DNA from: an uncultured Candidatus Saccharibacteria bacterium
GTDB taxonomy: Bacteria; Patescibacteriota; Doudnabacteria; UBA920
Assembly (NCBI GenBank): GCA_964490395.1
Contig: CAZBAS010000003.1
Location: forward strand, 120,293-184,292
Length of the DNA: 64,000 nucleotides
Direction of reading: 5' to 3'
Under the pieces are notes generated by a model. It saw only the letters and a list, made by a program, of their open reading frames with translations. It was not told the origin of the DNA and ran no database searches. The translations under genes were made by a program, and so were the position numbers. Positions 7,195 to 61,993 of this stretch are shown here, one piece after another. Each line of letters starts with the position of its first letter. Position 1 is the first letter of the stretch.

Positions 7195-7230
7195 TCCTCC
7201 CCTAGAATAGGGGAGGCTAGGTGGGGTATT
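7195..7230. repeat. palindromic repeat of the CCCCTAnnnTAGGGG + TGGGG family (P1)
   Basis: tcctcccctagaataggggaggctaggtggggtat. Confidence 0.5.
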
Positions 7231-7273
7231 CTTACATTAGAAATTAGATAACAAGAATTAGACATTCTTAAGT

Positions 7274-7312
7274 GCCCGTCCCGCTAAGCGGGATGATCGG
7301 CACGCTAAGCGT
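7274..7312. repeat. pair of small GC hairpins of the CCCGCTNAGCGGG / CACGCTNAGCGTG family just upstream of tRNA-Thr
   Basis: tcccgctaagcggga is followed by ggcacgctaagcgtgcc. The same hairpin types occur at 14461-14552 and 29501-29545. Confidence 0.45.
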
Positions 7313-7388
7313 GCCGTTGTAGCTCAGTTGGTAGAGCATCTCCATGGTAAGGAGAAGGTCTGCGGTTCGATCCCGCACAACGGCTCCA
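7313..7388 (+). tRNA. tRNA-Thr (anticodon GGT)
   Basis: A manual cloverleaf gives acceptor GCCGTTG/CAACGGC, D-arm GCTC..GAGC, anticodon stem TCTCC/GGAGA with loop ATGGTAA, T-arm TGCGG TTCGATC CCGCA, discriminator T and an encoded CCA. Confidence 0.88.
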
Positions 7389-7390
7389 GA

Positions 7391-7421
7391 AAAACACTGC
7401 AATAAACTAGCAGTGTTTTTT
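7391..7421 (+). terminator. hairpin terminator after tRNA-Thr
   Basis: aaaacactgcaataaactagcagtgtttttt. Confidence 0.5.
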
Positions 7422-7425
7422 ATAT

Positions 7426-8328
7426 ATGGATATACAAATCTTATCCCGCAAGTTCATTGACTACTTAAAGTGCATTAAGGGTTACTCGGCGGAGACGCTC
7501 CGTCGTTACCGGCAGGTCATAAACTATTTTTGTAGCTATGCGCACATACACAGTATTGAACAGGTGGATCAGGAGAATGCGCGAAACTTATTTTACTACG
7601 GTCGTACAGAACAAAAGTGGACCACCAACACTTTTATCTGCAATCACAAGTCACTCATGGCATTCTTTCGCTGGTGCATGAAAGAAGAGCATATGACCTT
7701 TAACCCTATGGAAGCGATAGAGGTGCCGAAGCTGGAGAAACGGTTGCCACCGAAGCTAAACAAACAAGACGCGCTGCGCATACTTGAAGTTGTAGATAAC
7801 TATCCGTATGACAGCAAGTTCTTGCGCCTAAGGAGTTACGCAATATTCGCAAAGTTCATAATGGCAGGAGTGCGAAAGAAAGAACTATTAAATTTAAAAT
7901 ATACAGACGTTGAAATAGAAAACCTTTCCATATTCATCCGGCAGGGGAAGGGGAGTAAAGACCGGGTTGTACCAATTAACTACCGGCTGGCAGAAGCATT
8001 GCAGCGCTATGCAGAAGAGCGCCGCAGGGCAAACAAAACCTGCCCGGAGTTTTTTACTTCTTCTACGTATGACCAGGGCTTTACACATAGCGGTTTAAAG
8101 CGCGTACTGGAAAGAATAATACAAACTTCCGGCATACAGTTTAACATTCACAAGCTGCGCCACACATTTGCCACGCTAATGCTTGAAGGCGGCTGTGACC
8201 TGTACAGCCTTTCAAAAATGATGGGGCACAACGATATTAAAACCACCACCATATACTTGGCCGCTAACATTGAGCACCTGCGGGCGCAAATTACCAAACA
8301 CCCTTTGGCTCAGTGGTTTATGGGTTGA
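7426..8328 (+). CDS. tyrosine recombinase / phage-type integrase
   Basis: The C-terminal catalytic region reads HKLRHTFATLMLEGGCDLYSLSKMMGHNDIKTTTIYL (R..HxxR..Y). It sits immediately 3' of a tRNA. Confidence 0.85.
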   Translation: MDIQILSRKFIDYLKCIKGYSAETLRRYRQVINYFCSYAHIHSIEQVDQENARNLFYYGRTEQKWTTNTFICNHKSLMAFFRWCMKEEHMTFNPMEAIEVPKLEKRLPPKLNKQDALRILEVVDNYPYDSKFLRLRSYAIFAKFIMAGVRKKELLNLKYTDVEIENLSIFIRQGKGSKDRVVPINYRLAEALQRYAEERRRANKTCPEFFTSSTYDQGFTHSGLKRVLERIIQTSGIQFNIHKLRHTFATLMLEGGCDLYSLSKMMGHNDIKTTTIYLAANIEHLRAQITKHPLAQWFMG

Positions 8329-8416
8329 TTTTTAGGTCCTTTTGCAGTATAGTAGCTTATCTCATGGCCGGGTTTTCCTGCCATGTACATCAACCTGTAG
8401 GAGGAAAAATTAAGCT

Positions 8417-8887
8417 ATGGCAGAAGTTGTGAGTATTTTTACTGCACAAGATAAAGGTCAGCCTATGGTCTCCCATCAGCTCATTCAAGCTTTGGCTGGT
8501 GTGGGCTTGGCGGGTGATCGTTACGCTAATAGAAGAGGGGCATTCTCGGGTGCGAAAGCGCGGCAAACAGTCCGGCACGTCTCGCTTATTGCTGAAGAAG
8601 CAATTGCAGCGGCAAACGCCGAGCTGGACAATCCATTTGCACCAGAAGAAACACGCCGCAACATTCTTACTCGCGGCATTAACCTAAACGAACTTGTCGG
8701 GGTTGAGTTTTCTGTCGGCGTAGTGCGCATGCGTGGGGTCGAACTTTGTGATCCGTGCGGACGTCCTGCAAACCTGGCGGGGAAGGCATACTTTGACGTT
8801 GCGTTCGCTGACCGCGGTGGCCTCCGCGCTGAAGTTTTATCAGGCGGAACCATTAATGTTGGCGACGCAATAACCATCAATGCTTAG
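8417..8887 (+). CDS. MOSC-domain protein (YiiM-like)
   Basis: It contains GDRYANRRGAFSG and VELCDPCGRP, the typical MOSC Cys region. The gene is GC-rich compared with its neighbours. Confidence 0.65.
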   Translation: MAEVVSIFTAQDKGQPMVSHQLIQALAGVGLAGDRYANRRGAFSGAKARQTVRHVSLIAEEAIAAANAELDNPFAPEETRRNILTRGINLNELVGVEFSVGVVRMRGVELCDPCGRPANLAGKAYFDVAFADRGGLRAEVLSGGTINVGDAITINA

Positions 8888-9055
8888 GCTAACCACCTAA
8901 GCCAACCGAACGGAGGTCGGTGTATGCGTTTTGCGGAATGGTTGTTTATCATTGCTCTAATGCTTTATACCACAGCTATTGTGTGGCATAAGGTCGTAAA
9001 CGAACTTCGCATACCTATTGCGGTAGTTTTTTGAGCCGGCCTCCTAAACGACGTA

Positions 9056-9817
9056 ATGGGTACGTTTCTCCTGTGTGTTGCTGCTGCACATTCCTGGCAG
9101 TGGAACACTCACAGTATTGCAGGCCTGGCCGCTTTGGTGATCATGGCCGCACACTTTGGTTGGTACCTACTGGCCTTGTTCAAAAGCGGGAAGTGGGCAG
9201 TTTCATTCCACCGTTGGTCAGTTGCGGCTTGGGCGGTTTGGCTCGTGGCATTTGTGTCCGGCATTCCAGTCGGAGTGTGGGCACAATTATGGATCGCCGC
9301 TTCAATTACAGCGATGACGTGGTTTAGTTGGCGGCTGGCGGTAAAGCTTTATGTGCCACCTAAGATGGTCCGGGCAACATTGCTGGATCAGATTGAAGTG
9401 CTGGATGCCTCGGTCAAGCAACGGCGCTACTCCTGTGGGCACGATGCATCGAAGACGTTCAGGGTTTCATTCTACGGACAAGTGAGCAAGTTGTTCAAGC
9501 GTGCTCGCAAGTGCCCTGACTGTTTCATTGCAGAAGTTTCCCCGCACGTTATCCGCTGTGTCTTGTGCGGCGACCCGATTTTTCCTGGCGATGGGGTCGC
9601 GTTATATGCACCAGACAATACCATGAGGCTGGATATCGCCACCACTCTTCCCGATGGTCAGGTCATCGGCTGTATGGGTTGGGACTGTTGTGACTGCGGC
9701 GCGTTCTTCGCTGGCAACTGGTCAGTGGAAGGGTTTGTGCCCAGGTTTGGAGGCAGAACCGCGGGACAAGAGGCAATGGCTACAGGAAACACCATCGTAG
9801 TCAACCAAATAAGTTAG
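9056..9817 (+). CDS. membrane protein with a cysteine-rich C-terminal domain
   Basis: Four transmembrane helices are followed by several CxxC motifs (CPDCF, CVLCGD, CMGWDCCDCG). The gene is GC-rich and its function is unknown. Confidence 0.5.
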   Translation: MGTFLLCVAAAHSWQWNTHSIAGLAALVIMAAHFGWYLLALFKSGKWAVSFHRWSVAAWAVWLVAFVSGIPVGVWAQLWIAASITAMTWFSWRLAVKLYVPPKMVRATLLDQIEVLDASVKQRRYSCGHDASKTFRVSFYGQVSKLFKRARKCPDCFIAEVSPHVIRCVLCGDPIFPGDGVALYAPDNTMRLDIATTLPDGQVIGCMGWDCCDCGAFFAGNWSVEGFVPRFGGRTAGQEAMATGNTIVVNQIS

Positions 9818-9911
9818 CAATCGCCAAAACTTAAATTTTCAGGACAAGTGTCCACCGCTGCGAAGAAAGGCGCAGCGGTTTTTTATTGTGCGAATATATT
9901 CGTATATATAC

Positions 9912-9943
9912 AAAAAGAACGTACAAGTTAGTACGTTCTTTTT
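9912..9943. terminator. bidirectional hairpin terminator
   Basis: aaaaagaacgtac aagtta gtacgttcttttt is a perfect 13-bp stem flanked by A and T runs. Confidence 0.6.
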
Positions 9944-9946
9944 GTA

Positions 9947-10216
9947 TGGTGGGCCGAGTAGGATTCGAACCTACGAAGGCATAAGCCAGCTGATTTCAAT
10001 TTTCTCGGAGTTTCCTCTGAGGATCGGACTATATCTTCACCGTGATCAGTATGATGGTAGGTGTTTCGGTATCTAGTCTCTACGGCGCTCCCCGGCAGTG
10101 TGCCAGAGTTCCCACGGTATTACCATATTTACCTTAGTAAATTTAGGCTTCACCGTTATCCCGAAAAGTTCACTTTAGCGTTTCCACTAAAGGCTGCAAT
10201 TGTTTACAGTCAGCCC
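9947..10216 (-). ncRNA. candidate tmRNA (ssrA-like): a tRNA-like 3' terminus whose 5' acceptor partner lies 260 nt upstream
   Basis: On the minus strand the RNA ends GUAGG-UUCGAAU-CCUAC-UCGGCCC-A-CCA, which is a T-arm, a 3' acceptor strand, a discriminator and an encoded CCA. No anticodon or variable arm precedes the T-arm, unlike a tRNA. The complementary 5' strand GGGCUGA lies at plus-strand positions 10210-10216. No canonical -LAA tag ORF was found, so the call is tentative. Confidence 0.4.
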
Positions 10217-10246
10217 CCGTTGACCGCTTGGGTATCGACCCGCGTT

Positions 10247-10846
10247 TTACGCGGTAAGGTCAGTGAGTAATGCTTTGCATTCGGTCAATATTTCTTCAAG
10301 CAGTTTTTTATCGCTGTACCTAATATGGATTACGCCTTGAGGCATTGTTCGGTTTAAGCGCGTGCCCTGATTCTGGCGAACGTAGGGCTTTGTAAACTGA
10401 TTTTTAGAAACTTTAAGGGCTTTCGCCCAGTAATTGATTAGTCCCGTGGGACTATCTTCAGAAAAGCAATACAGGTAAAATCTTAGCTTATTTTCGTCTA
10501 TTTGGCAAATCTCTCTGAGGAATTTAAGGAACAATTTTATTGCTGGCATGGATGAGTTGGCAAGGTCTACGGTATTGCCAGTTTTGGCACCTTCGCCCCA
10601 GTAGAGCATTAAGGCGGCTATTTGGAGGTGTCGTTGTGGGGGAGTCAGCTTACTGACAATACTGTAGGTCTTGGGTGTCTGGAGAAATCGAAGTTTGTTT
10701 TGCTCGGTCTGGCTACGCATGCGCACTTTGGCCCTTCTGAGGATTCGATACACAGTGTGTATCGCCACGCCAGTTTCTCTGGCGATTGCAGGGGTGCTTC
10801 TGCCAGCGTTGTACAATGTAGTTATTTTTTCTGTATCAATCTCCAT
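10247..10846 (-). CDS. helix-turn-helix DNA-binding protein with a C-terminal domain of unknown function
   Basis: The N-terminal HTH reads LYNAGRSTPAIARETGVAIHTVYRIL. The weak LYWGEGAK similarity to LAGLIDADG is not convincing. Confidence 0.5.
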   Translation of the reverse strand: MEIDTEKITTLYNAGRSTPAIARETGVAIHTVYRILRRAKVRMRSQTEQNKLRFLQTPKTYSIVSKLTPPQRHLQIAALMLYWGEGAKTGNTVDLANSSMPAIKLFLKFLREICQIDENKLRFYLYCFSEDSPTGLINYWAKALKVSKNQFTKPYVRQNQGTRLNRTMPQGVIHIRYSDKKLLEEILTECKALLTDLTA

Positions 10847-10868
10847 AGCATTATTATAACATAAGACA

Positions 10869-11576: not shown

Positions 11577-11602
11577 ATGGACTTTGTGGATAACTTAAAC
11601 TT

Positions 11603-11626: not shown

Positions 11627-11642
11627 TATTATTGACGTATAG

Positions 11643-11822: not shown

Positions 11823-12215
11823 ATGCAATCGCACGAACAGAATAAAATTGAGAAGTTTACAGATTTGAATGCATGGCGAGAAGCGCATAATTTGGTTCTA
11901 AAGACTTATGTTGTTATTAAGGATTTTCCTAAGGATGAGTTATTTGGCCTTACGAGTCAGCTAAGACGTGCAGTAGTTTCCATAACGTCGAATATTGCCG
12001 AGGCGTTCAGTAGAAATTCCTTTAAAGAAAAGTTACAATTTTGGGCTATAAGTTTAGGTTCTTTAACAGAAGTCCAAAATCAGTTAATTATAGCTCGAGA
12101 TGTAGGTTATTTGAGTCCACAAGACTACGAAGCCCTGAACAGTCAGTCCATAGTTGCTAGTAAGTTAATCAATGGTTTAATCAAGAAAACTAAAGTAATT
12201 ATTCATAATTCGTAA
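11823..12215 (+). CDS. four-helix-bundle protein (23S rRNA intervening-sequence / Avd-like family), paralogue 1
   Basis: It has the family signature FGLTSQLRRAVVSITSNIAEAFSR. It is about 40% identical to the paralogues at 12879, 13880 and 32497. Confidence 0.8.
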   Translation: MQSHEQNKIEKFTDLNAWREAHNLVLKTYVVIKDFPKDELFGLTSQLRRAVVSITSNIAEAFSRNSFKEKLQFWAISLGSLTEVQNQLIIARDVGYLSPQDYEALNSQSIVASKLINGLIKKTKVIIHNS

Positions 12216-12239
12216 TTCAGTATTCATAATTCAAACTCT

Positions 12240-12878: not shown

Positions 12879-13256
12879 TTGTCAGTTAATACGATCTGTA
12901 TGACCATACTCAAGTTTGAAGATATCCTTGCCTGGAAAAAGGCGCATGAGCTAACTCTTATGGTCTACGCACTCACTAAGGATTTCCCCCGAGAAGAGAT
13001 ATTCGGTCTAACTAGCCAGATTCGCGGGGCTGCGGTATCCGTTCCATCAAATATAGCCGAAGGGTTTAAGCGCAGAACCAAGAGCGACTCAATTCACTTT
13101 TATAATATTGCCCAAGGTTCATTGGAAGAAGCTAAATATCAGTTATTGCTCGCGCGCGACTTGGGTTATATACGAAATTCAGATTTTGATCTCAGTGCTG
13201 TTATTACAGATGAGGCAGGTAGATTGCTTGCCGGTTGGATTAGAAACGCTAAATAG
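12879..13256 (+). CDS. four-helix-bundle protein (IVS/Avd-like), paralogue 2
   Basis: FGLTSQIRGAAVSVPSNIAEGFKRR. Confidence 0.8.
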   Translation: MSVNTICMTILKFEDILAWKKAHELTLMVYALTKDFPREEIFGLTSQIRGAAVSVPSNIAEGFKRRTKSDSIHFYNIAQGSLEEAKYQLLLARDLGYIRNSDFDLSAVITDEAGRLLAGWIRNAK

Positions 13257-13879: not shown

Positions 13880-14224
13880 ATGAAAATTAATAATTTCGAA
13901 GATATTATTGCATGGCAAAAAAGCAAAGACCTGGGGCTTCGACTTTATAAATCTTTTGGCAGACACGCCGATTATGGTTTTAGGGACCAAATACTTCGAG
14001 CGGTCATAAGCATTGCGAATAATATTGCGGAGGGCTTTGAAAGGCGGAGCAATAAAGAATTAAGGCAATTTCTGTTCATTGCAAAAGGATCGTGCGGTGA
14101 AGTTCGGTCTATGCTCTACTTCGCTTCTGAACTGGGTTATATAACATCCGCAGAGCTCGATAGCTATATGGATTCCTCTATAGAAATATCTAAATTATTA
14201 TCTGGATTTATTAAAACTTTATAA
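13880..14224 (+). CDS. four-helix-bundle protein (IVS/Avd-like), paralogue 3
   Basis: ILRAVISIANNIAEGFERRSNKE. Confidence 0.8.
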   Translation: MKINNFEDIIAWQKSKDLGLRLYKSFGRHADYGFRDQILRAVISIANNIAEGFERRSNKELRQFLFIAKGSCGEVRSMLYFASELGYITSAELDSYMDSSIEISKLLSGFIKTL

Positions 14225-14460: not shown

Positions 14461-14552
14461 GTCTGTCATCCCGCTCAGCGGGATGCTAACCACGCTGAGC
14501 GTGGTCATTCCCGCACATGCGGGAATCCAGTGTCGCTATCCCAGCGACACAG
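14461..14552. repeat. cluster of four consecutive short GC hairpins
   Basis: catcccgctcagcgggatg, accacgctgagcgtggt, cattcccgcacatgcgggaatc and gtgtcgctatcccagcgacac. The stems resemble the termini of the TGTCATTCCGG MITE-like family. Confidence 0.5.
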
Positions 14553-14606
14553 CCAAAGCTCTTAGTTTAGTTTGTAAATTATTTTGTTCTTAACACAAAA
14601 AAGTAT

Positions 14607-14870
14607 ATGCAAACATCTACAGTGCAGTACAAGTACAGTACTCGAACGCAAGGCTGGGTGGCTCGCGAAAAACCAGCATCGTACGCTGGTCGTGAAGATG
14701 CGTTATTGCTGGAGTTTAAAAAAGAAAGCATTGCCTTAGCGCAGCAAATATGGGAACTTGCAAATTTAGATACTAAAATTACTCCCATGGAGGAAGCAAA
14801 ACTAGTATTTAAACTGGAAGCCATTCTAGATATGCGCCGTGAACTAGTAAAAGAGGCGGGTACCAAATAA
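14607..14870 (+). CDS. hypothetical small protein (87 aa)
   Basis: ORF only. Confidence 0.35.
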   Translation: MQTSTVQYKYSTRTQGWVAREKPASYAGREDALLLEFKKESIALAQQIWELANLDTKITPMEEAKLVFKLEAILDMRRELVKEAGTK

Positions 14871-14943
14871 CAAAAATAGCCATAAAAGGCTATTTTTGCT
14901 GTATCAGGCCGACATGCTATTATATTTATAATCTTCCAATCAT

Positions 14944-15171
14944 ATGGAACTTACTAAAGAATATTTGGATAAACACTATCAAGAGCTTAACGAATTTCTC
15001 AGCGAACAGTTTGAGAAGGTTTTTGCTCGTTTCGATGAAATGGCCGCCAAAGCGGAGCTAGCGGCCCTGGAGAGAAAAACAACCGAGGGATTTGCAGAAC
15101 AATCTATTAAACTTGGTTTTATCCAAGCAGGCATAGCGATATTGAGAAAGGACTTAGAAGCCTTGGCCTAA
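14944..15171 (+). CDS. hypothetical coiled-coil protein that may continue by a +1 frameshift to 15280
   Basis: The stop at 15169-15171 is followed by an overlapping open frame reading KRTKDDDNAFTKELIKLKSRIDALERKVQALKKQHA, which ends at the terminator. Confidence 0.35.
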   Translation: MELTKEYLDKHYQELNEFLSEQFEKVFARFDEMAAKAELAALERKTTEGFAEQSIKLGFIQAGIAILRKDLEALA

Positions 15172-15264
15172 GCGCACCAAAGATGATGATAATGCTTTTA
15201 CCAAAGAACTTATTAAGTTGAAAAGTCGTATAGATGCTCTTGAGCGTAAGGTCCAAGCCCTCAA

Positions 15265-15297
15265 AAAACAACACGCCTAAATCGGCGTGTTGTTTTA
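15265..15297 (+). terminator. Rho-independent terminator
   Basis: aacaacacgcc taaat cggcgtgttgtttt. Confidence 0.6.
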
Positions 15298-15458
15298 TCT
15301 GTCTATGTACATAGGATTTTTGGTAGACCAACGGCGAACCAAACCGAGCTAGAATATACTAAAGCAATCTTAGAGATTGAGTTTTCCAATAATAATTGAG
15401 GTGTACGAAAAGAGAATGGAAAACTATTTCACGATACTTATAAGCTATTGAAGTAAAA

Positions 15459-20029: not shown

Positions 20030-20135
20030 TGGTCCGGTTCTTCCCCTAAGATAGGGGAATCTAAATGGGGTATGGACCATTATTGCTATAGTTCATACCA
20101 CCCCAACCCCTCCTATTTTAGGAGGGGAACAAATG
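20030..20135. repeat. composite palindromic repeat P2 (TCCCCTAAGATAGGGGAA...CCCCTCCTATTTTAGGAGGGG)
   Basis: It is near-identical to the copy at 58554-58651. Confidence 0.55.
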
Positions 20136-20151
20136 CAGCAACGATTAGCAT

Positions 20152-21024
20152 ATGTCTAGACTTTTGAAAATCACATTATGGATAGCATTGTTGCTAGCAA
20201 TTTTGTTGCCGACGCATTTCGCTTCAGCGCATGTGCTGAAGGTAGATGGTAGTATAGGATCTACTTTGCATGTGGACCCTGCTGACAACCCCATTGTGGG
20301 TAGTCCGGCTACGTTTTATTTTGAAATAAAAGACAAGCAAAATAAATTTACTCCAGCAGCGTGTAACTGTACTGTTAGTATATCCACCAGTCAGGGAGAG
20401 GTGCTTCATACCGAGCAACTATTTACCCAGAGTAGTAGTGCGGGTCTTTCAAATCCATTACTGCAATATGTATTTGAGAAAGGTGGGGTATATACTGTTA
20501 CGCTCACGGGTAGTCCTAAAACCGCGGGTGGGTTTCAAAGTTTTCAGCTCAGTTACACTGTTCGTGTAGAAAATGGTGAATCATCTGCCCATACGGATAG
20601 TGCTGAAAGTTCTGTTTCTGACGCCTGGCTCTACAGCGGCCTAGGGCTACTCGTAGTAGTTGGCTTTGCGCTCATTACATGGCAGCGAAAGAAAAAAAGT
20701 AAACATAGCTCAGCCTTACTCGTGCTGTTCGGAGTTTTTGCCTCGGCGAACATGCTCTTTTACGCTGGTCATTTTTTTGAGCTTGCTACCCCAGCTCCGG
20801 TGCACCACCATACTGCTCACGAGACGGGCCATGTTGAAAAAGGTTTTCATGCTACTGCTCCCCATACTACGCCCCTAGCTGTAACACATGCTTTTGTAGG
20901 TAGTGAGCATGTGCTAAGCCCTTTGTTTCTCAGGCCTGCGCCAGTTGCACTCGCCTTTGTTCCTGCACTCTCAAATACACGCGCACCGCCCCTAGTCGCA
21001 CCCTTTGCCATGTCCGTTTCCTAA
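20152..21024 (+). CDS. YcnI-like (DUF1775) secreted/membrane protein with a His-rich C-terminal tail
   Basis: A signal peptide is followed by a mature N-terminus beginning HVLKVDG. After a transmembrane helix the tail reads HHHTAHETGHVEKGFH. Confidence 0.5.
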   Translation: MSRLLKITLWIALLLAILLPTHFASAHVLKVDGSIGSTLHVDPADNPIVGSPATFYFEIKDKQNKFTPAACNCTVSISTSQGEVLHTEQLFTQSSSAGLSNPLLQYVFEKGGVYTVTLTGSPKTAGGFQSFQLSYTVRVENGESSAHTDSAESSVSDAWLYSGLGLLVVVGFALITWQRKKKSKHSSALLVLFGVFASANMLFYAGHFFELATPAPVHHHTAHETGHVEKGFHATAPHTTPLAVTHAFVGSEHVLSPLFLRPAPVALAFVPALSNTRAPPLVAPFAMSVS

Positions 21025-25950: not shown

Positions 25951-26724
25951 TTATAATACGTAGTTTCCCACTTTGGTGCGCACCAGTGTATATACGCAGG
26001 CGCCAGTGCCTAGCTTTTTTCCAATTTCGTTTACCAAAGAACGAATGTAGGTGCCGCTGCTGCAACGCACGGTAAAGGAAAGGGTAGGCATGCGTTTGTG
26101 TGGCTCGTGCGCGAGGAGTTCGTGCCAGGTGTTTATAATTTCGTCTTGGCGGAAATTGCCATCAACTTCCGGTATAGTGCGGGTAATGTAATTCAGTATA
26201 TCCATTGCAGAAAGTTCACTAACTGCTACCTCCGTTATGGCATGGATAGTGGTTAGTCTCTCGGGAGCGTCTTCCGCTTGTATGCTCTTTGCCTGTGCCC
26301 ATGCATGGAGTGGTTTGCCTTTATAGGGCGGCGAGCTGTATATGGGCAATGGTAACAATGTTTCTCCAACGTAAGATTGTAATATTTTCGGCATTTGCTC
26401 CTCCCCTAATATAGGGGAGGTTGGGTGGGGTCTAATTGCACTGGGCACTCCCAACAAATCAAAAGAGTCAGTTTGTACCCCCAATAGTGCAGTAACTCTA
26501 TACTCTTTATCTAGTCCTAAATACGTATCTTTTTCATGAACTGCATCTCCAGCTAGTATTAACAACAACCCTTCTGCCATGGGGTCAAGCCTTCCTGCGT
26601 ACGTAAGAGGGACTGCTCGCAGCTCTGGCCTTTGCTCCTTTAAACCAGAAAGCGCCTGCAGGGGAGTGCTGCCTGCAGGTTTATACATGCCATATACATT
26701 TGGCGTGAATTGAGTAATTTTCAT
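25951..26724 (-). CDS. truB: tRNA pseudouridine synthase (TruB-like)
   Basis: It has the GRLDPMAEGLL catalytic Asp motif. It carries an in-frame palindromic repeat insertion at 26398-26432. Confidence 0.75.
   Translation of the reverse strand: MKITQFTPNVYGMYKPAGSTPLQALSGLKEQRPELRAVPLTYAGRLDPMAEGLLLILAGDAVHEKDTYLGLDKEYRVTALLGVQTDSFDLLGVPSAIRPHPTSPILGEEQMPKILQSYVGETLLPLPIYSSPPYKGKPLHAWAQAKSIQAEDAPERLTTIHAITEVAVSELSAMDILNYITRTIPEVDGNFRQDEIINTWHELLAHEPHKRMPTLSFTVRCSSGTYIRSLVNEIGKKLGTGACVYTLVRTKVGNYVL
26398..26432. repeat. palindromic repeat P3 inserted in-frame in truB
   Basis: ctcctcccctaatataggggaggttgggtggggtc is translated as part of ...PHPTSPILGEE... Confidence 0.55.
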
Positions 26725-29500: not shown

Positions 29501-29545
29501 GCGCTTGGCGCGGCTATACTCACGCTGAGCGTGAGCGCCTTATGC
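29501..29545. repeat. pair of GC hairpins upstream of tRNA-Glu, the same family as 7274 and 14461
   Basis: gccgcgcttggcgcggc and tcacgctgagcgtga. Confidence 0.45.
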
Positions 29546-32496: not shown

Positions 32497-32865
32497 TTAG
32501 CTCATTTTTCTGATGGTTGCCCATAACATGCGAGCTATCTCGTCTCCTAAATTATATGCTTTGCTGTAATTATCTTCGTTAATCCATGTTTCCCGATTTG
32601 CAAACTTTAGTAAGTACTGGCTTTCCTTTAAGGATCCGAAGGCGATTTCTAAGAAGTTTAATTGTACCTTATATCTGAACCTGGCGAAACCTTCAATGTA
32701 ATTTAATGCTATAGATAATGCTGCTCGCTTGTGCTGTGAACTTGATCCGAATAGTTCTTCTTTTGGATATTTGTTAGTAATAGCGTAAATAAGGTGGACA
32801 TAAGCATCGATCTTCACTTGAAGAATGTCATGGAATTTATCTTGGTTATCTGTTACATGTTCCAT
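32497..32865 (-). CDS. four-helix-bundle protein (IVS/Avd-like), paralogue 4
   Basis: FGSSSQHKRAALSIALNYIEGFAR. Confidence 0.75.
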   Translation of the reverse strand: MEHVTDNQDKFHDILQVKIDAYVHLIYAITNKYPKEELFGSSSQHKRAALSIALNYIEGFARFRYKVQLNFLEIAFGSLKESQYLLKFANRETWINEDNYSKAYNLGDEIARMLWATIRKMS

Positions 32866-33534: not shown

Positions 33535-35040
33535 TTATGAATTACGTAAAGAGAGCAAAACCTTTATATGGTATGCCGTAATAATTGCAGCAGTGAGCAC
33601 TAGTAACCACACTGGTATGTAAATACTGGCGGCCCAGAGGGTTACGAAGCCGTACCCAAGTGCACAGGCTATGACCAATATTGAGCGCCAAGATGATGGT
33701 CTCGCCGCCTTTGGCAACTTGTAATTTAATTGTAGCAAAAGTGGGGGATAAAGCCACATAGTAAAAGCAGAAAGGCAGGCCGAGAGCACTAACAGGAAAA
33801 AAGGTTGCTTAAATGCTGGAACAAGTAATGATAGGCATAAAATAGCTATGCCTAGAAGGGCTGCGAATATACTGAGGTGTCCGTGTGTTGCTGTTCCCAA
33901 GCGTTTAATTAGTCCTTGGTTTGATAGATTGAGTGGGTTTAAAATGCGGCTGAGTAGGCGACCAATGGCGTCGAGTATGGTCAGGTTCGCCATGATAAAT
34001 ATGAGCGTACCCGCAATGCCAAATAATGTACCAAGGTGGGGGAATAGTGCGTTTAGGGCAAGTATTTCTGCTTTGATAACTCCAAAGCCTTGCGCTGTGC
34101 CAATAGGCAATAAAATGCGTCCAAGGTAAGCAAGGAGGAATATAGAAAATACATTTGCTACAACGAACAGAAGTGCATGCTCCTTATTTATAAACGCAAA
34201 CCATTTTTTAAAGTTTGAGATTGATTCTTTGCTTTCCAATTCTCTTCGGTTTGTCATTCCGGCCCCCGAGCCGGAATCCAGGCTGGGACTAAGATGGATT
34301 CCGGATAGCCCTCGATGACTCGTGGCTTCCGGAATGACAGAGGGGGAGTTAACTCCATAGCCTTTATCTGCAATCCACTCGCTTTGCACTAAGTTGAGTG
34401 CGCCTGCCACTCCGCCGTAGGCTAGCGCGCCTACAAAATCAAAACGCGGCAGATTTTTTGGTATGTAGCCAAAATTAAAGAGGCCGCGCAGCCCTTCCCA
34501 AAAAACTCCCGCATCAAACTTTACTATAACCACAAGTACAATAATGCTTAGTGCACTGCTTAAACCGATGCGGGAAATTTTTTCTAGTATTTTATAAATA
34601 TTCGATTTCCGAAATACCAGTATTGCTAAACCGAGCAGGAGCACGGCGAGTGCTAACCCTATATTTCGTTCTTGTCCTGCAGGTACATTGAAAAGCACTG
34701 CGAGAATGTTTCCCGCCGTGCTCATCCACGCTGGCCACATGAGCGCAGCTATTACCGTGAGTCCAAAGACCGTGGCAAGCCATATTTTGTTTTGCACTAA
34801 CGCTGCTTCTACTCGCTTTCCCGTGACGAGTGTGTAGCGCTCTATTTCTATATTTACCACAAACTGCAGCAGCAGAATTATGAGTAATGGCCACAACAGG
34901 CCAAGGCCAAAGTTCGCCACCAGGCTCGGCCAGAGAAGCATTTCGCCGCCATTGAGCGATAGCGCTACAAAGACTATGCTGGGGCCCAACATAGCTAATA
35001 ACGATTTTGTGAGTGGTGGAAAGGTTTGTGCGTTTTTCAT
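33535..35040 (-). CDS. polytopic membrane protein of unknown function carrying an in-frame MITE-like insertion
   Basis: It has 12 or more transmembrane helices. The element at 34252-34339 is translated as ...PEATSHRGLSGIHLSPSLDSGSGAGM... Confidence 0.5.
   Translation of the reverse strand: MKNAQTFPPLTKSLLAMLGPSIVFVALSLNGGEMLLWPSLVANFGLGLLWPLLIILLLQFVVNIEIERYTLVTGKRVEAALVQNKIWLATVFGLTVIAALMWPAWMSTAGNILAVLFNVPAGQERNIGLALAVLLLGLAILVFRKSNIYKILEKISRIGLSSALSIIVLVVIVKFDAGVFWEGLRGLFNFGYIPKNLPRFDFVGALAYGGVAGALNLVQSEWIADKGYGVNSPSVIPEATSHRGLSGIHLSPSLDSGSGAGMTNRRELESKESISNFKKWFAFINKEHALLFVVANVFSIFLLAYLGRILLPIGTAQGFGVIKAEILALNALFPHLGTLFGIAGTLIFIMANLTILDAIGRLLSRILNPLNLSNQGLIKRLGTATHGHLSIFAALLGIAILCLSLLVPAFKQPFFLLVLSACLSAFTMWLYPPLLLQLNYKLPKAARPSSWRSILVIACALGYGFVTLWAASIYIPVWLLVLTAAIITAYHIKVLLSLRNS
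34252..34339. mobile_element. MITE-like element of the TGTCATTCCGG...CCGGAATGACA family (B1), inside a CDS
   Basis: It has terminal inverted repeats. The internal segment is the reverse complement of the 45025 copy (ccggatagccctcgatgactcgtggc). Confidence 0.5.
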
Positions 35041-49631: not shown

Positions 49632-49639
49632 TGAAGAAA

Positions 49640-49737
49640 TGTCCAATTTCTAATATCTAATATCTAATGTTCGGACTATAGGGTTAAGAATTTTCATTAG
49701 GAATTAGAAATTAGGTATTAGACATTAAACGCCAGTT
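49640..49737. repeat. AT-rich inverted-repeat element of the TAATTCCTAATTTCTAAT family, upstream of the subtilase gene
   Basis: aatttctaatatctaatatctaat is paired with attaggaattagaaattaggtattagacatt. Confidence 0.5.
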
Positions 49738-51464: not shown

Positions 51465-51556
51465 AAATATCTAATTCCTAATTTCTAATGTCTAAAAAAA
51501 GACAAAGGAAAATCCGAACATTTGGAATTAGAAATTAGGAATTAGAAATTCATTTG
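51465..51556. repeat. AT-rich inverted-repeat element of the same family, downstream of the subtilase gene
   Basis: atctaattcctaatttctaatgtct is paired with ggaattagaaattaggaattagaaatt. Confidence 0.5.
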
Positions 51557-58487: not shown

Positions 58488-58553
58488 CCCGCCATCATAA
58501 CAATTTTAGATGGAGTTACGGGCTTTTATTTATGGTAGATTTAGTGGTCCTGT

Positions 58554-58651
58554 TTTCCCCCTAAGATAGGGGAAGTTAGATGGGCAGGAGCTAATAGTTT
58601 CGTGGTTCATACCACCCCTAACCCCTCCTATTTTAGGAGGGGAACAAATGC
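58554..58651. repeat. composite palindromic repeat P4, near-identical to 20030-20135
   Basis: ttttccccctaagataggggaagttagatggg is followed by cataccacccctaacccctcctattttaggaggggaacaaatgc. Confidence 0.55.
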
Positions 58652-58711
58652 TGTAATGGTTGGGGTTTGGTGTATTTTGTACCTATAGTTTTTTGTTGTT
58701 ACAATATACGT

Positions 58712-59908
58712 ATGATTATAGGTATAGAAGCGGAGCGGGCGAATAATCCGGTTAAGACGGGGGTGGAGCATTATGCGCAGCAGCTCATATTGCAGTTCGC
58801 TCAAATAGATGCGGAAAATCAATACATTTTATATTTACGCACTCAGCCTGAGGAGTGGATATTAAAGCTTCCTAAAAATTTTAGTTACAAGGTAATGCCA
58901 TTTCCCATTTTTTGGACACAACTACGTTTGTCCTGGGAAATGCTTAGGCATAAGCCGGACGTCTTATTTGTCCCGGCAAGTTCTATGCCCATTATCCATC
59001 CACGCAAAACCGTGGTTACGGTGCATGATTTGGCGTTTATGTTTTACCCGGAAACGTATACCACGTTCATGCGGTACTTTCACATGTTTGAGGATGTGTT
59101 GGTGAGTCAGCTTGCGTGGAAAATTATCACTGTTTCCGAAAGTACCAAGCGCGATTTTGTTAAGTTTTGGAAAACGGATGAAAAGCGCATAAGCGTTGTA
59201 CGTCATGGGTTTACTCCGGTCTCCGGTCCCTCTCCTCGTGAGGAGGGGCAGGGGGAGGTCATAGTAAAGAATGACGATGCATTAAAAGTTTCTATGACCC
59301 CCTCTAACTCCCCCTCAAGCGGGGGAGCACCGGACCTAGGCAATAAGCCACAAGCTACCAGCTCACTTCAGTTGCCGGAAAAGTTTGTACTGTTCCTCTC
59401 AACTATCCAGCCACGCAAGAATTTGAGCGGGCTTATAGCTGCATTTCGTAAGTTTAAACAAAATCATCCTGAAGACTCCCATAAGCTTGTAGTAGCAGGT
59501 AAAATTGGTTGGAAGGCAGAGGGGATATTGCAGGAAATAGAGCGTAATAAAGATGTGGTACTATATCTAAATCACGTTACGGACGAAGAGCGGGCAGAGC
59601 TGTACAAAAAGGCGTCGGCTCTTGCTATGCCCAGCCTGTATGAAGGGTTTGGTATGTGGATACTCGAAGCCTTTGATGCTGGCGTGCCAGTTATAACATC
59701 GAATATTTCTTCCATGCCGGAAGTGGCAGGGGATGCGGCCGAGTACTGTGATCCTAAAAGCATAGAGAGCATAACAGCAGCCTTAGAAAAAGTGCTTTTG
59801 GACAAAGAAAGAGCCGCCACGCTTGTACAACAAGGGCGTGAACGGCTAAAGATGTTCTCCTGGCGCAAATGCGCTGAGGAGACTTTAAAAGTTATTCAAG
59901 CAAAGTGA
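58712..59908 (+). CDS. family 4 glycosyltransferase (GT-B) with a repeat-derived insert in the interdomain linker
   Basis: The C-terminal EGFGMWILEAFDAGVPVITSNISSMPEVAGDAA is the GT4 E-x7-E region. The insert PSPREEGQGEV...SNSPSSGGAPDLG is encoded by the palindromes at 59225-59330. Confidence 0.8.
   Translation: MIIGIEAERANNPVKTGVEHYAQQLILQFAQIDAENQYILYLRTQPEEWILKLPKNFSYKVMPFPIFWTQLRLSWEMLRHKPDVLFVPASSMPIIHPRKTVVTVHDLAFMFYPETYTTFMRYFHMFEDVLVSQLAWKIITVSESTKRDFVKFWKTDEKRISVVRHGFTPVSGPSPREEGQGEVIVKNDDALKVSMTPSNSPSSGGAPDLGNKPQATSSLQLPEKFVLFLSTIQPRKNLSGLIAAFRKFKQNHPEDSHKLVVAGKIGWKAEGILQEIERNKDVVLYLNHVTDEERAELYKKASALAMPSLYEGFGMWILEAFDAGVPVITSNISSMPEVAGDAAEYCDPKSIESITAALEKVLLDKERAATLVQQGRERLKMFSWRKCAEETLKVIQAK
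59225..59330. repeat. two GC-rich palindromes inside the GT4 gene
   Basis: ccctctcctcgtgaggagggg and ctccccctcaagcgggggag. Confidence 0.35.
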
Positions 59909-60117
59909 CGGCTTATTATTTTGATGTGCTCCATACTTGTAACGCTGGCCAGGACCTGACCCGCGGCGCTACTAATAATAAGTGTGCCATCTTTTAGGGT
60001 TAATATGCCCTTGTGGATTACGAAATCAACCTTGCCGTCGGGCATTAATTGGCCAACTTTTACTGTAGCCATTAATCTGCTAACACCCAGTGCGGTATAG
60101 ACTCTATGCTTGGTCAT
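59896..60117 (-). CDS. hypothetical small protein (73 aa)
   Basis: ORF only. Confidence 0.3.
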   Translation of the reverse strand: MTKHRVYTALGVSRLMATVKVGQLMPDGKVDFVIHKGILTLKDGTLIISSAAGQVLASVTSMEHIKIISRHFA

Positions 60118-60229
60118 TTGTTGCCTCCTTTGGGGACGTCAGAAAGTATCTCTATCTTAGCGGAATAATAACAGGCTATTCATAAAAACGCGAATATTCC
60201 CATTTTTACTTTATTTATCTTGATAACTC

Positions 60230-61993
60230 ATGTTGAGCACCTCATTTACTAACCATAAATTTTTTAAAAATCAATCCATACTTATTTTGCTACTCTGGCA
60301 GACGCTTTCCGTGTATCTTATGGCCGTGGGAACGTGGCCTGCGTGGGTGGCTTGGGTGAATGTTGGGCTCATTATTTTATTTATTGTGCTCAGACCTGCT
60401 TTCGAAGGTCTTTTGCTTGCCGTGGGGTCCATTGCTTTTTATGTGGTGCTGCCGAGCCATTTTTCTGACACCCTATCCATGTGGCGACCTGTGGTGGGTG
60501 TATTGTTTTTAAAAACGGTTTGGGAATGGTGGTTTGTTTCTTCTCCTAGGGTAGGCGGAGCTAGAGGGGGTGCGAGCGCTCATACCACACCCAACCTCTC
60601 CTATCTTAGGAGAGGAGTAAATGCCGCTCGTAGTATAGTTTTGAACTTTCATAATTCCCTCTACACCTATGAAAAATTTGGTGCCGCGTTATTTGTTTTA
60701 GCCATACTATCGCTTGCACTTGCGCGATACCCGCTTCGTGGCGCATCGCAGCTTGTTTTTTTGCTCAACACAGCGTTGCTCTATCCTATTGTAGTGTGGG
60801 CTGTTAAAAGCCGTGACCAGTTTATTCGCGTGCTTAGGTACGGCGCCCTATCTACGGGGGCCATCATAGCTATTGGATATGTACAATTTACCGCAACACT
60901 GTTTAGCGTAGCGTATTACTTTTGGCAATATTGGGCGCTGCGTGTGGCAACGTTGTACTATGGGTTGCCGCTTGCTAAAGTGCTGCAGTATTCAAACTCT
61001 TGGGTTACGGTCCAGGGCGAAGCAAAAACCCTTCGCATGTTTAGTATTATGCCGAGCAGTCATGCCTTTGCTATGGTCTGCGTATTGTTTTTAGCGTTCG
61101 CGTTACCATTGTTGTATGTGTCATCCTCGCGAAGGCGGGGATCTAACTCGCCTACAAGCGAGCAAAAAGCCGGTACTCTGTTGTCGGCTGGTGGACCGAC
61201 GTGGATTCCCGATCGGGTCGGGAATGACAGAAGAGGCAGGCTTTGGCTGGGAGTTGCGTTGGCGTGCTTGGCACTGATTGTTTCTGGAACGCGTGGGGTG
61301 TGGGCTGGTATGGTGCCAGTGTTTATTATTGTTGCATTACTCTACAAGATAAAAAACCTTAAGCTTACTGAGCTGCTTAGGCCCGCGCTGGCCGCCATGT
61401 TACTTGCGATAATTTTATTTGAAGCATCACCGTTGTTGGATCGTGGGTTTGCTTGGGTACGAAACGCAAGCGGAGAAGCGACCTTGGATAGAGTAGAAAG
61501 TATTATTAACCCCGAAGAAACATCGAATGCTGGAAGGCTCGAAATGTGGAGGGCTGCGTCAAAGTATGCGCTGCATCATCCGTTTGGGGTAGGGTATGCT
61601 AACTTTGTAGTCACTCTTTCTACAACTGCCAAGGACGTGAGTTTTGACCAGGCCGCAAGCCAGGAAAACAAACTGTATCAACTTCCTCAGCGTTACGTCA
61701 CAGCTCACAGTCTGTACCTGCAACTGCTGGTTGAGCTGAGTGCGATAGGTCTTATACTGTTCGGACTGTTCTGGCTAAGTTTTTTCTACCGCATGTGGGA
61801 TTACGTACGATCTCGGGCCTACAGCATAAGCCCCGAAACCATATATATTGCAAGCCTTTGCGTGGTATTCCTCTGGTTTCTTGCCTATGGCGTATTTGAT
61901 GTGACTTGGCTTAATGATAAGATATTACTGTATACCTTTCTAGCGTTAGGCCTCGCGAGGATTGCAGTGTCCACCACAAGCAGCGCCGATTAA
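60230..61993 (+). CDS. O-antigen ligase (Wzy_C)-like polytopic membrane protein carrying two in-frame repeat insertions
   Basis: It has a 12-TM topology with a large loop. The inserts at 60538-60625 and 61129-61229 are translated without stops as ...AHTTPNLSYLRRGVNAA... and ...SSSRRRGSNSPTSEQKAGTLLSAGGPTWIPDRVGNDRRG... Confidence 0.55.
   Translation: MLSTSFTNHKFFKNQSILILLLWQTLSVYLMAVGTWPAWVAWVNVGLIILFIVLRPAFEGLLLAVGSIAFYVVLPSHFSDTLSMWRPVVGVLFLKTVWEWWFVSSPRVGGARGGASAHTTPNLSYLRRGVNAARSIVLNFHNSLYTYEKFGAALFVLAILSLALARYPLRGASQLVFLLNTALLYPIVVWAVKSRDQFIRVLRYGALSTGAIIAIGYVQFTATLFSVAYYFWQYWALRVATLYYGLPLAKVLQYSNSWVTVQGEAKTLRMFSIMPSSHAFAMVCVLFLAFALPLLYVSSSRRRGSNSPTSEQKAGTLLSAGGPTWIPDRVGNDRRGRLWLGVALACLALIVSGTRGVWAGMVPVFIIVALLYKIKNLKLTELLRPALAAMLLAIILFEASPLLDRGFAWVRNASGEATLDRVESIINPEETSNAGRLEMWRAASKYALHHPFGVGYANFVVTLSTTAKDVSFDQAASQENKLYQLPQRYVTAHSLYLQLLVELSAIGLILFGLFWLSFFYRMWDYVRSRAYSISPETIYIASLCVVFLWFLAYGVFDVTWLNDKILLYTFLALGLARIAVSTTSSAD
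60538..60625. repeat. diverged copy of the composite palindromic repeat (P5), inside a CDS
   Basis: cataccacacccaacctctcctatcttaggagaggagtaaatgc resembles cataccaccccaacccctcctattttaggaggggaacaaatgc. Confidence 0.5.
61129..61229. mobile_element. MITE-like element (B3) with TGTCATCC...GGAATGACA termini, inside a CDS
   Basis: The terminal inverted repeats are tgtcatcctcgcgaagg and ccgatcgggtcgggaatgaca. Confidence 0.45.

Follow-up and report, generated by a model that had tools for sequence, protein, structure and literature searches.

Dispersed hairpin-tail repeats in a Patescibacteria genome are probably gene-less derivatives of a DUF559 nuclease cassette

In yeast mitochondria, mobile GC clusters are GC-rich palindromes in an AT-rich, compact genome; they differ from strain to strain and in some cases fall within coding sequences, where some must be bypassed by the ribosome. 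The Rickettsia palindromic elements (RPEs), reportedly described by Ogata et al. in 2000 and 2002, are said to be short palindromes of a reduced genome that lie in frame in housekeeping genes. They are translated as an extra surface peptide, and old copies are common to orthologues and are decaying. To our knowledge, RPEs are confined to Rickettsia and have no associated gene. They are mentioned in PMC3767692. The REP, BIME and REPIN sequences are GC-rich imperfect palindromes of ~35 nt, often in inverted doublets, and their RAYT partner is a single small gene flanked by the repeats on which it presumably acts (PMC3733652). Bacterial MITEs (Correia/NEMIS, ERIC and RU-1/2/3) are non-coding, multi-copy sequences of ~100 bp with terminal inverted repeats (TIRs), which are sometimes intragenic and translated (PMC10969869, PMC2759123, PMC3184786). 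I-Bth0305I is a Vsr-like homing endonuclease (PMC3239194), and for free-standing genes of the Vsr-like kind a 5′ hairpin can outlast the lost gene (Dassa et al. 2009, PMC2677866).

We analysed a 64-kb window (the whole stretch of DNA under study) of an ultra-small, Saccharibacteria-like Patescibacteria genome, for which an earlier note had proposed a distinct family of dispersed palindromes, lying both between genes and inside coding sequences. All the copies that it listed are present, their positions being exact or off by a few bases. The repeat unit is a 7-8 bp hairpin (CCTCCCC-TAnnnTA-GGGGAGG) followed by the linker YTAGG and then by a tail rich in G, TGGGGTAT; its 5′ flank reads TTCCT and its 3′ flank YTAGG-TGGGGTA. 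Six copies are present, two solo and four composites of ~105-121 bp. The composites had been read as pairs of palindromes, and indeed each consists of a left and a right unit that share one architecture in inverted orientation, i.e. TIRs are present. Three of the six copies lie in frame inside genes (truB, a GT4 glycosyltransferase and a Wzy_C 'ligase'), whose ORFs read through them. The GT4 palindromes, previously treated as something separate but related, share this architecture in diverged form. The copies and their host genes are as follows.

7195..7230, + strand: solo unit between a TPR gene (6232-7125) and tRNA-Thr (7313); hairpin 7196-7216 (CCTCCCCT-agaat-AGGGGAGG), linker CTAGG, tail TGGGGTAT
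20033..20148, + strand: composite of two inverted units without an ORF; left half, hairpin 20041-20059 and tail ending TGGGGTATGG, then a 20-nt spacer; right half, tail CATACCACCCCAA, hairpin 20107-20127 (CCCCTCCT-atttt-AGGAGGGG) and conserved flank GAACAAATGCAGCAACGATT
25951..26724, - strand: truB, host gene, 257 aa (Pfam TruB_N, E = 1.5e-20)
26394..26432, + strand: solo unit inside truB; hairpin 26400-26420, tail TTGGGTGGGGT
58547..58663, + strand: composite; left hairpin 58555-58574, right hairpin 58622-58642; 80% identical to the 20033 composite
58712..59908, + strand: GT4-family glycosyltransferase, host gene (Pfam Glycos_transf_1, Glyco_transf_4; start from the L055/L056 alignment)
59216..59336, + strand: GT4 gene copy, a diverged composite that falls in the linker joining the two Rossmann-like halves; hairpins 59232-59245 and 59308-59327, with CCGGTCC...GGACCGG on the outside and inner ends GGTCATAG...CTATGACC
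60230..61993, + strand: Wzy_C (O-antigen-ligase-like) membrane protein, host gene (Pfam Wzy_C, E = 1.5e-19)
60530..60635, + strand: partly decayed composite inside the Wzy_C gene; left hairpin degenerate (~60540-60560), right hairpin intact (60595-60615)

The repeats stand out clearly from background. CCCCTAnnnTAGGGG occurs four times in the window against 0.09 expected in shuffles, none of which reached four. A blind scan of the window for hairpins with one pyrimidine and one purine arm returned 11 (shuffle mean 1.4, maximum 5), and nine of these 11 belong to the hairpin-tail family. Apart from the shortness of the motif, nothing favours chance similarity or an assembly artefact; against it stand the four matches where 0.09 were expected and the occurrence of the same units, in frame, at orthologous and non-orthologous sites across independent assemblies from different projects, which leave this explanation next to no probability. 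Folded as single-stranded DNA, the solo unit at 7195..7230 reached -9.0 kcal/mol (z = -2.97). The 20033 composite forms two local hairpins with tail-tail pairing (z = -3.5), and the GT4 composite, with stems CTCCTC/GAGGAG and CTCCCCC/GGGGGAG, a closing stem and three internal stems (z = -2.9). The Wzy composite (the 60538 copy) as a whole folds no better than shuffles (z = -0.78). Although the composites at 20030 and 58554 had been called nearly identical, their overall identity of only 80% breaks down into 90% for the right halves and 75% for the left.

Comparison with relatives separated recent copies from old ones. The GT4 insert adds a net 108 nt (36 codons in frame) and is absent from relatives L055 and L056 (GT4 proteins 85-86% identical); the Wzy composite is absent from the same two, and in these two comparisons, which cover two relatives, the proteins are otherwise 81-86% identical. 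Full-length Wzy orthologues have the N-terminus upstream of the insert in common, and at the insertion loop P0126 and P0129 have a like composite, P0122 and P0128 an element of another kind. The 20033 composite is absent from the orthologous intergenic region of L051. The truB unit occupies identical codon positions in orthologues L053 and L054, where it carries the compensatory pair CCTCTCC/GGAGAGG; truB orthologues with the unit are ~55% identical, and the synonymous compensatory change preserves the hairpin. It is decayed in L049 and L051. Thus the suggestion that the element lands in genes is borne out for GT4 and Wzy, and a recent landing in truB is not: at the insertion point the unit is shared by orthologues, which the earlier note had itself named as a refuting outcome, though distant TruB proteins lack it. 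Judged from these alignments, the truB copy is old and the GT4 and Wzy copies are true insertions. At the GT4 and Wzy sites, filled and empty sites gave no clear target-site duplication, the insert-adjacent flanks themselves being variable, and at GT4 ~12 nt of host sequence were apparently replaced rather than duplicated; exact element termini could not be defined from the filled/empty comparisons.

The intragenic copies in truB, GT4 and Wzy are free of stops, in frame and at variable loops of conserved genes, and are therefore translated as extra peptide: IRPHPTSPILGEEQ from the minus strand in TruB and FVSSPRVGGARGGASAHTTPNLSYLRRGVNAARS in the Wzy protein. Further copies, which the earlier note had proposed searching for, occur well beyond the window, including in-frame units in MetRS and RsmA/KsgA of another Patescibacteria genome. 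In this respect the family resembles the RPEs, being dispersed between genes and in frame in housekeeping genes of a reduced genome. The likeness to RPE-1 to RPE-8 of Rickettsia is an analogy only, since the host here belongs to the Patescibacteria. RPEs differ in that their sequences are probably unrelated; here, moreover, the same ends bracket a nuclease gene (see below) and closely similar units occur in several phyla. The yeast mitochondrial GC clusters differ in being organellar and unrelated in sequence, and where some of them need ribosomal bypass, the copies in the window's genes are open and in frame.

The earlier note also placed the composites just upstream of gene starts, with a terminal aggaggggaacaaATG supplying a Shine-Dalgarno (SD)-like sequence and an ATG. 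The downstream genes do not start there; their real starts are farther along, at ATG 20152 and ATG 58712. The former begins a signal-peptide N-terminus, and the L051 orthologue starts equivalently without any composite; the latter (MIIGIEAERA) is conserved in L055 and L056, 49 nt downstream of the 58547..58663 composite. The ORFs that begin at the ATG of the composites (20030 and 58554) run for only 8 and 2 codons, and the longest ORF starting inside any window copy has at most 31 codons. GGAGG and ATG belong to the element's own consensus. Placement is better described relative to the preceding gene: 26 of 30 intergenic units lie downstream of it and are co-oriented with it. This orientation, the CCTCC/GGAGG (anti-SD/SD) within the hairpin and the compensatory synonymous pair in truB would all suit units that are host-selected structural or regulatory motifs (sequestering SD sequences, stabilising mRNA or binding proteins) and that spread by site-by-site selection without moving. 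Such a role is hard to reconcile with units in coding loops on either strand, presence or absence between close relatives without other change, decay in some lineages, and downstream starts that lie beyond the units. In addition, searches with the units gave no Rfam match, and no unit checked, including the solo unit at 7195..7230, had a T-run or was flagged by terminator prediction. We therefore give the host-motif explanation little credence.

Among loci fetched for other reasons, all five DUF559 genes (in L030, L023, L022, L054 and L026) are bracketed by two inverted hairpin-tail units. The ends in L030, L023 and L022 are as in the window's units, and those in L054 and L026 have other stems (CCCCTCTTT/AAAGAGGGG and CCCTCCC/GGGAGGG) in an unchanged layout. 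The DUF559 start codon of L023 and L030 is the ATG within the conserved 'GGGGTATG' of the unit, and the ORF ends in or adjoining the right unit. The cassette proteins match PF04480 (E = 1e-28 to 1e-35), keep the D...E-x-D-G-x-x-H...R-x-x-N positions and match PDB 3hrl (E = 1e-15). The complete cassette of L054 is placed between the genes for AspRS and a membrane protein; at this position the window, L051 and L053 carry instead a gene of 116-123 aa. The 64-kb window holds no DUF559 ORF. A GIY-YIG gene in L056 is located in like manner inside another composite family.

The association was examined in a wider sample of 80 metagenome DUF559 loci picked by protein similarity only, searching at most 130 nt upstream and, at the 3′ end, a stretch that begins 70 nt ahead of the stop codon and reaches 110 nt past it. 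A pyrimidine-arm hairpin was found upstream at 55 of 79 loci, at the 3′ end of 48 of 74 and at both ends of 34 of 73, against a background of 0.28 per kb (0.045 expected per search window); ~30% of the loci have no hairpin by the strict criterion. Tails match each other better within one element than between different elements (6.66 versus 5.13; maximum 5.62 in 200 permutations). The same layout surrounds DUF559 genes of cultured bacteria, namely Picosynechococcus PCC 7002 pAQ6, Deinococcus and Photobacterium. These data also bear on whether the units are REP/REPIN elements moved by a RAYT, an IS200/IS605-like Y1 transposase. As 35-nt GC-rich imperfect palindromes, often in inverted pairs, they are akin to REP doublets, but the GTAG or CGTC tag is absent from the hairpin foot (criterion from PMC3733652), half of the window copies and those in MetRS and RsmA are intragenic rather than extragenic, and the gene between the inverted units is in five of five cases a Vsr-like PD-(D/E)XK nuclease of the DUF559 family and not a Y1 (HUH) transposase. 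A RAYT-driven origin is accordingly very improbable.

Since DUF559 genes are bracketed by the units, both in the five loci and in the wider sample, we interpret the window copies as MITE-like derivatives, without the gene, and as solo ends of a small mobile DUF559 nuclease cassette, and regard this as the probable explanation. Among 59 matches to the left unit, 21 were composites, 30 were solo, three were full-length with DUF559, four were cut by a contig end and one (L008) was paired with a neighbouring element. As with MITEs, the window units are short, non-coding and multi-copy with TIRs, and a far rarer gene-bearing form has the same ends; unlike in MITEs, the gene-bearing form is not an IS with a recognised transposase and the TIRs are themselves hairpins, and the GT4 and Wzy sites showed no clear target-site duplication.

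Alternatively, the palindromic composite could be primary and spread by other means, with the DUF559 gene a secondary, free-standing homing endonuclease parasite that cuts the centre of empty composites, the 'ends' being its split target. When a quasi-palindromic target is split by insertion, inverted flanks follow automatically. Copies without the gene are also far commoner than copies with it, homing endonucleases are known among Vsr-like nucleases (PMC3239194, PMC2677866) and the GIY-YIG gene of L056 is likewise placed. Full-length relatives of the window copies also resemble such genes in encoding a Vsr/DUF559-clan nuclease with a 5′ hairpin and translation signals. The known homing endonuclease genes occupy a single cognate target (introns, inteins, phage genes), whereas the cassette has no intron or intein context, its inverted ends are matched, and many gene-less copies, such as those of the window, which lack the ORF, lie at unrelated sites. 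Against the parasite scenario, the ATG or GTG is retained in solo and composite copies of many genomes, and since start codon and SD-like tail form part of the repeat consensus and persist across phyla in copies without the gene, internal deletion fits better than insertion. Furthermore, the layout of ends and ORF stays constant while the stem sequences change completely, which points to ends and ORF co-evolving as one unit. We consider the parasite scenario unlikely, although the association itself may have begun in either order, ORF first or repeats first.

Under the preferred reading, as derivatives of a DUF559 cassette, a complete element comprises a left end (C-rich arm, loop, G-rich arm, YTAGG linker, G-rich tail), an ATG with the DUF559 ORF, and a right end (C-rich tail, TAACC, C-rich arm, loop, G-rich arm, GGAAC), the two ends being mutual inverted repeats. 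The G-rich tail, 3-10 nt before the start codon, occupies the position of the ORF's SD sequence, and the sole gene encodes a predicted Vsr-like PD-(D/E)XK endonuclease of ~115-128 aa. The six window copies would have lost the ORF, leaving four end-to-end MITE-like composites and two single ends, and would have been inserted or copied in at different times: those in GT4 and Wzy after the split from the 81-86% identical relatives, that in truB long ago. Intragenic copies would persist only if they contain no stops, preserve the frame and lie in variable loops or linkers. Mobility could be provided in trans by a DUF559 nuclease whose full-length copy lies at another place in the genome or existed in the past; the nuclease would nick or cut at hairpin-tail ends or target sites, followed by copying through break repair (homing-like gene conversion between copies) or transposition. 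The window copies may all be relics. We know of no transposase of the ~120-aa Vsr-like nuclease kind, and in the literature we found neither a report of any DUF559 protein acting on such ends nor a description of DUF559 cassettes with gene-less hairpin derivatives.

More tentatively, and with somewhat less conviction than doubt, we suggest that DUF559 proteins are the nucleases of an undescribed, cross-phylum class of minimal mobile elements, with a parallel GIY-YIG class, and that their gene-less derivatives are the GC-rich 'coding palindromes' of Patescibacteria. In each element of this class a single gene, for a ~120-aa Vsr-like nuclease, would be enclosed by two inverted ends of the hairpin-plus-tail kind, and E. 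coli YcjD, N. gonorrhoeae 3hrl and thousands of 'endonuclease domain-containing proteins' would be members; a small GIY-YIG nuclease would form the core of the parallel class. The gene-less derivatives would pepper Patescibacteria proteins, recurring at the same loops. DUF559 is a large nuclease family without an assigned function, and the cassette reading gives it a concrete role that can be tested in PCC 7002 (pAQ6), Deinococcus, E. coli (YcjD) and Neisseria. If the nuclease does act on the hairpin-tail ends, its mobility mechanism would be unlike both HUH (RAYT) and DDE systems. On the cassette reading, Patescibacteria, their minimal genomes notwithstanding, tolerate and keep selfish palindromic DNA in essential genes (truB, metG, rsmA and cell-envelope genes), an echo of the Rickettsia RPEs that matters for protein annotation and alignment.

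All of the copies listed in the earlier note are present in the window, and they are built from a basic unit of ∼35 nt. Each unit comprises a perfect hairpin of 7–8 bp whose 5′ arm is pyrimidine and whose 3′ arm is purine (CCTCCCC-TAnnnTA-GGGGAGG), joined by a short linker (CTAGG, TTGGG or TCTAAA) to a G-rich tail (TGGGGTAT); the ends typical of the window's own subfamily read …GGGGAACAAATGC. The motif CCCCTAnnnTAGGGG occurs four times in the window compared with 0.09 expected, and a blind scan recovered 11 pyrimidine/purine-arm hairpins versus a mean of 1.4 in shuffles, with nine of the 11 belonging to the unit family. In the four composites, a spacer of 15–25 nt is followed by a second, inverted unit (CATACCACCCC-AA-CCCCTCC-TAnnnTA-GGAGGGG-AAC). 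The copies are as follows:

7195–7230, solo unit
26394–26432, solo unit, in truB
20033–20148, composite
58547–58663, composite
60530–60635, composite, decayed
59216–59336, composite, more diverged

The composites at 20033 and 58547, previously described as nearly identical, share 80% identity. Single-strand folding of the better-preserved copies gave two local hairpins and a tail–tail stem (z = −2.9 to −3.6), a fold that was not obtained for the decayed copy at 60530. No Rfam family was found for the units, either across the whole window at gathering thresholds or in six loci at E ≤ 1. A role of the unit hairpins as terminators was rejected, because no T-run follows any of them and none was called terminator-like; the sole terminator-like hairpin, at 11602, is unrelated to the unit family.

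The composites had been proposed to provide downstream genes with a Shine-Dalgarno sequence and an ATG. Their right ends do carry GGAGG...ATG, but as part of the element consensus, and the genes start later, at 20152 and 58712, the latter start being conserved in relatives without an upstream composite. The sequence ...AAATGCnGC also follows the right hairpin inside the Wzy gene, and a related ...GCAAATGCC adjoins the truB unit. Occasional co-option of the right-end GGAGG is possible, since in other genomes (for example at locus L030) it can be spaced from a host ATG as a Shine-Dalgarno sequence would be.

Three of the copies are intragenic and stop-free, being read through in the genes for TruB, a GT4 glycosyltransferase and a Wzy_C membrane protein; the truB copy is translated (minus strand) as ...IRPHPTSPILGEEQ.... 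We compared the window with the syntenic relatives L055 (ERZ650281) and L056 (GCA_964648985.1). Their GT4 proteins, 85–86% identical to that of the window, lack a clean 36-codon block that corresponds to the diverged composite, and the ∼105-nt composite is missing from their Wzy genes. At another locus, L051, the orthologous intergenic region has no counterpart of the composite at 20033. The two filled/empty comparisons (GT4 and Wzy) showed no target-site duplication and gave no exact termini. Among Wzy homologues of the window's own clade (81–90% identity outside the loops), P0121 carries a window-type composite and P0122 a different composite, remnants of which are found in P0123 and P0124. 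A second clade (83–91%) includes P0126 with the window-type composite, P0128 with the other composite, and P0130 and P0133 with neither, while the more distant P0129 has the window-type composite again. Two repeat families have therefore hit the same loop independently, several times.

The truB copy is older. It is present at the same codons in L049 (TruB 81%), where a 3-nt deletion has broken the stem, in L051 (TruB 75%), where it is largely decayed, and in L053 and L054 (TruB 55–58%), where the loop is still ATA and a single stem pair has changed in both arms (C>T and G>A), each time at a synonymous third position. The unit segment is missing from more distant TruB proteins. The insertion is thus an old one, and some lineages have retained its hairpin.

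Judged by its TruB homologues, the window belongs to the Patescibacteria, with an uncultured Saccharibacteria MAG as its closest named relative. A single scan for the exact pattern, across 185,579 species genomes, returned 48 loci. Their sources are Saccharibacteria, Doudna-, Peri-, Berkel-, Gracili- and Beckwithbacteria and unnamed Patescibacteria, together with bins assigned to gut Alphaproteobacteria (∼25 copies whose loop does not vary), Prevotella(ceae), Lysobacteraceae and Deferribacteraceae; binning errors may account for some of the non-CPR labels. The unit pattern had no match in 2.9 million viral contigs, and the composite had no blastn match in plasmids or phages. When the translated composite was compared with proteins, a word-index search gave no matches and an exhaustive phmmer search gave four weak low-complexity matches. 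The unit consensus is strikingly constant (tCCTCCCCTAnnnTAGGGGAGGYTAGGTGGGGTRTGA), and each genome tends to have a characteristic loop or subfamily, the pattern that within-genome amplification would produce. The 59 left-unit matches comprised 21 composites, 30 solo units, three full-length elements, four copies cut by a contig end and one (L008) paired with a neighbouring element. Six of the 59 lie inside long ORFs, including those for MetRS and RsmA/KsgA of one Patescibacteria MAG, in which two or three consecutive units are translated. Locus L005 has a tandem cluster of five or six units from two subfamilies (CCTCCCC and CTCCCCC stems) at 3760–4010; its contig is AT-rich and the label, Lysobacteraceae, is probably a binning error.

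In three scanned loci, the left unit is followed by an ORF of 118–128 aa in place of the short spacer, and then by the right unit. These ORFs encode DUF559 proteins (PF04480, E = 1e-28 to 1e-35), Vsr-like PD-(D/E)XK nucleases related to PDB 3hrl (E = 1e-15). The ATG within the conserved GGGGTATG of the unit is the start codon in L030 and L023. The L030 ORF extends into the right unit as far as a stop in the hairpin loop, that of L023 stops in the C-rich tail of the right unit, and that of L022 stops just upstream of the whole right unit. An HMM built from these ORFs detected two further DUF559 genes among the fetched loci, unconnected to the pattern match, and both show the same layout with entirely different stems (CCCCTCTTT/AAAGAGGGG in L054; CCCTCCC/GGGAGGG in L026). 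L054 is syntenic with the window and has its cassette between AspRS and a membrane-protein gene, a site occupied in the window, L051 and L053 by a small gene of 116–123 aa. There is no DUF559 gene within the 64-kb window.

For an unbiased test, 80 DUF559 loci were drawn from JGI metagenomes with protein similarity as the sole criterion, and perfect hairpins with a pyrimidine arm, a stem ≥6 and at least 4 C were scored. A hairpin was present ≤130 nt upstream of the ORF in 55 of 79 loci, at the 3′ end (70 nt before to 110 nt after the stop codon) in 48 of 74, and at both positions in 34 of 73, compared with a background elsewhere in the same loci of 0.28 per kb, i.e. 0.045 expected per search window. 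The upstream hairpin is followed by a G-rich stretch that stops a few bases short of the ATG, where a Shine-Dalgarno sequence would lie, and the sequence preceding the downstream hairpin is complementary to this stretch. Tails matched better within the same element than between different elements (6.66 versus 5.13; 200 permutations, maximum 5.62). In the CCTCCCC subfamily each tail copies an arm of the opposite hairpin, and therefore alternative long-range pairings are possible. Similar flanks occur in cultured bacteria (Picosynechococcus PCC 7002 pAQ6, Deinococcus sp. and Photobacterium), and the E. coli DUF559 gene has a degenerate version. In L142 (the chromosome of E. coli H240, entered as a plasmid), the DUF559/ycjD-like gene is followed by a degenerate CCCTCTCCC...GAGGGGG palindrome and by a fragment that duplicates its own 3′ end.

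The most parsimonious interpretation is that the hairpin–tail units form the two inverted ends of a minimal DUF559 cassette, that the window's composites are internally deleted, MITE-like derivatives, and that solo units are single ends. Alternatively, the DUF559 gene could be a later invader of a pre-existing repeat, which we consider less likely: the start codon and ribosome-binding tail belong to the repeat consensus even in gene-less copies, and this favours deletion of the ORF. Intergenic units were co-oriented with the upstream gene in 26 of 30 cases (loci L001–L048, both neighbours callable), a count that is not independent because many copies come from one genome, and the bias suggests that the cassette relies on read-through transcription.

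The other composite in the Wzy loop represents a second family, with ends GTCATTGCGAG...GCAATC / GATTGC...CTTCGCAATGAC (L056 7575–7955; L057 1–150; Wzy loop of P0122, P0128, P0123 and P0124) and the translation ...RLPRSQSLPRNDN.... In L056 it brackets a small GIY-YIG (UPF0213-type) nuclease gene, and a relative of the window (92% identical) carries the gene-less form in the same Wzy loop. The two forms make up a parallel system of nuclease cassette and MITE. Another GIY-YIG gene, in L051, was rejected as a unit-flanked gene, as it has no flanking hairpin–tail units. A third GC-rich palindromic family is inserted in-frame in Wzy (61120–61250) and in a further gene, within 33535–35040 (minus strand), where translation gives ...SSSRRRGSNSPTSEQK...WIPDRVGNDRRG... 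and ...SVIPEATSHRGLSGIH...SGAGMTNRR...; P0123, P0124 and the L054 orthologue lack it. Between GT4 and Wzy, a 320-bp segment (59909–60229) contains a 73-aa minus-strand ORF (59896–60117) with its own GGAGG-N7-ATG, and in L055 and L056, which lack the segment, the two genes abut.

Other small features were noted in the window. A group I intron at 9951–10253 (minus strand; Rfam RF00028, 59.5 bits, 10004–10215) splits the anticodon loop of a long-arm tRNA-Tyr (anticodon GTA) that ARAGORN missed, an arrangement recently described for Patescibacteria (PMC13011429). The motif CGCTAAGCGGGATG..CACGCTAAGCGTG occurs at 7282–7313, 14472–14503 and 29502–29533, directly upstream of tRNA-Thr and tRNA-Glu, and a third copy precedes an ORF-poor stretch (about 14500–15450) that may hold another RNA gene. 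Four paralogous 23S_rRNA_IVP genes, three of them clustered around lexA, were rejected as unit-flanked genes since no hairpin units lie alongside. AT-rich heptamer-like tracts (AATTAGA, AATTAGG and GAATTAT) recur in intergenic regions. Positions are:

11823–12215, plus strand, 23S_rRNA_IVP gene (four-helix-bundle)
12879–13256, plus strand, 23S_rRNA_IVP gene (four-helix-bundle)
13880–14224, plus strand, 23S_rRNA_IVP gene (four-helix-bundle)
32497–32865, minus strand, 23S_rRNA_IVP gene (four-helix-bundle)
2821–2903, 5444–5553, 7232–7266, 12189–12233, 49638–49726 and 51466–51550, AT-rich heptamer-like tracts

Among known systems, Rickettsia palindromic elements are closest to the unit family in behaviour, being likewise coding palindromes in a reduced genome, whereas REP doublets and MITEs are closest in form. 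The family differs from the REP/RAYT definition in that it has no GTAG/CGTC tag, has intragenic copies and flanks a gene that does not encode a Y1 transposase. In the literature searched, drawn from outside the subscription journals, we found neither a link between DUF559 and a repeat or mobile element nor a description of an element of this kind.

The clan of DUF559 includes Vsr and the EDxHD homing endonuclease I-Bth0305I (PMC3424549, PMC3239194), and free-standing Vsr-like endonuclease genes have a 5′ hairpin that is left behind after gene loss (PMC2677866). The mode of movement is inferred. In a homing-like scheme, the nuclease would cut at or near a unit and the break would be repaired from another copy of the unit. 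Such a scheme would account for the pairs of gene-bearing and gene-less elements, for one element having taken the place of another in a given loop and for the upkeep of old copies. A plausible, more novel reading is that the elements may form a cross-phylum class of one-nuclease mini-elements.
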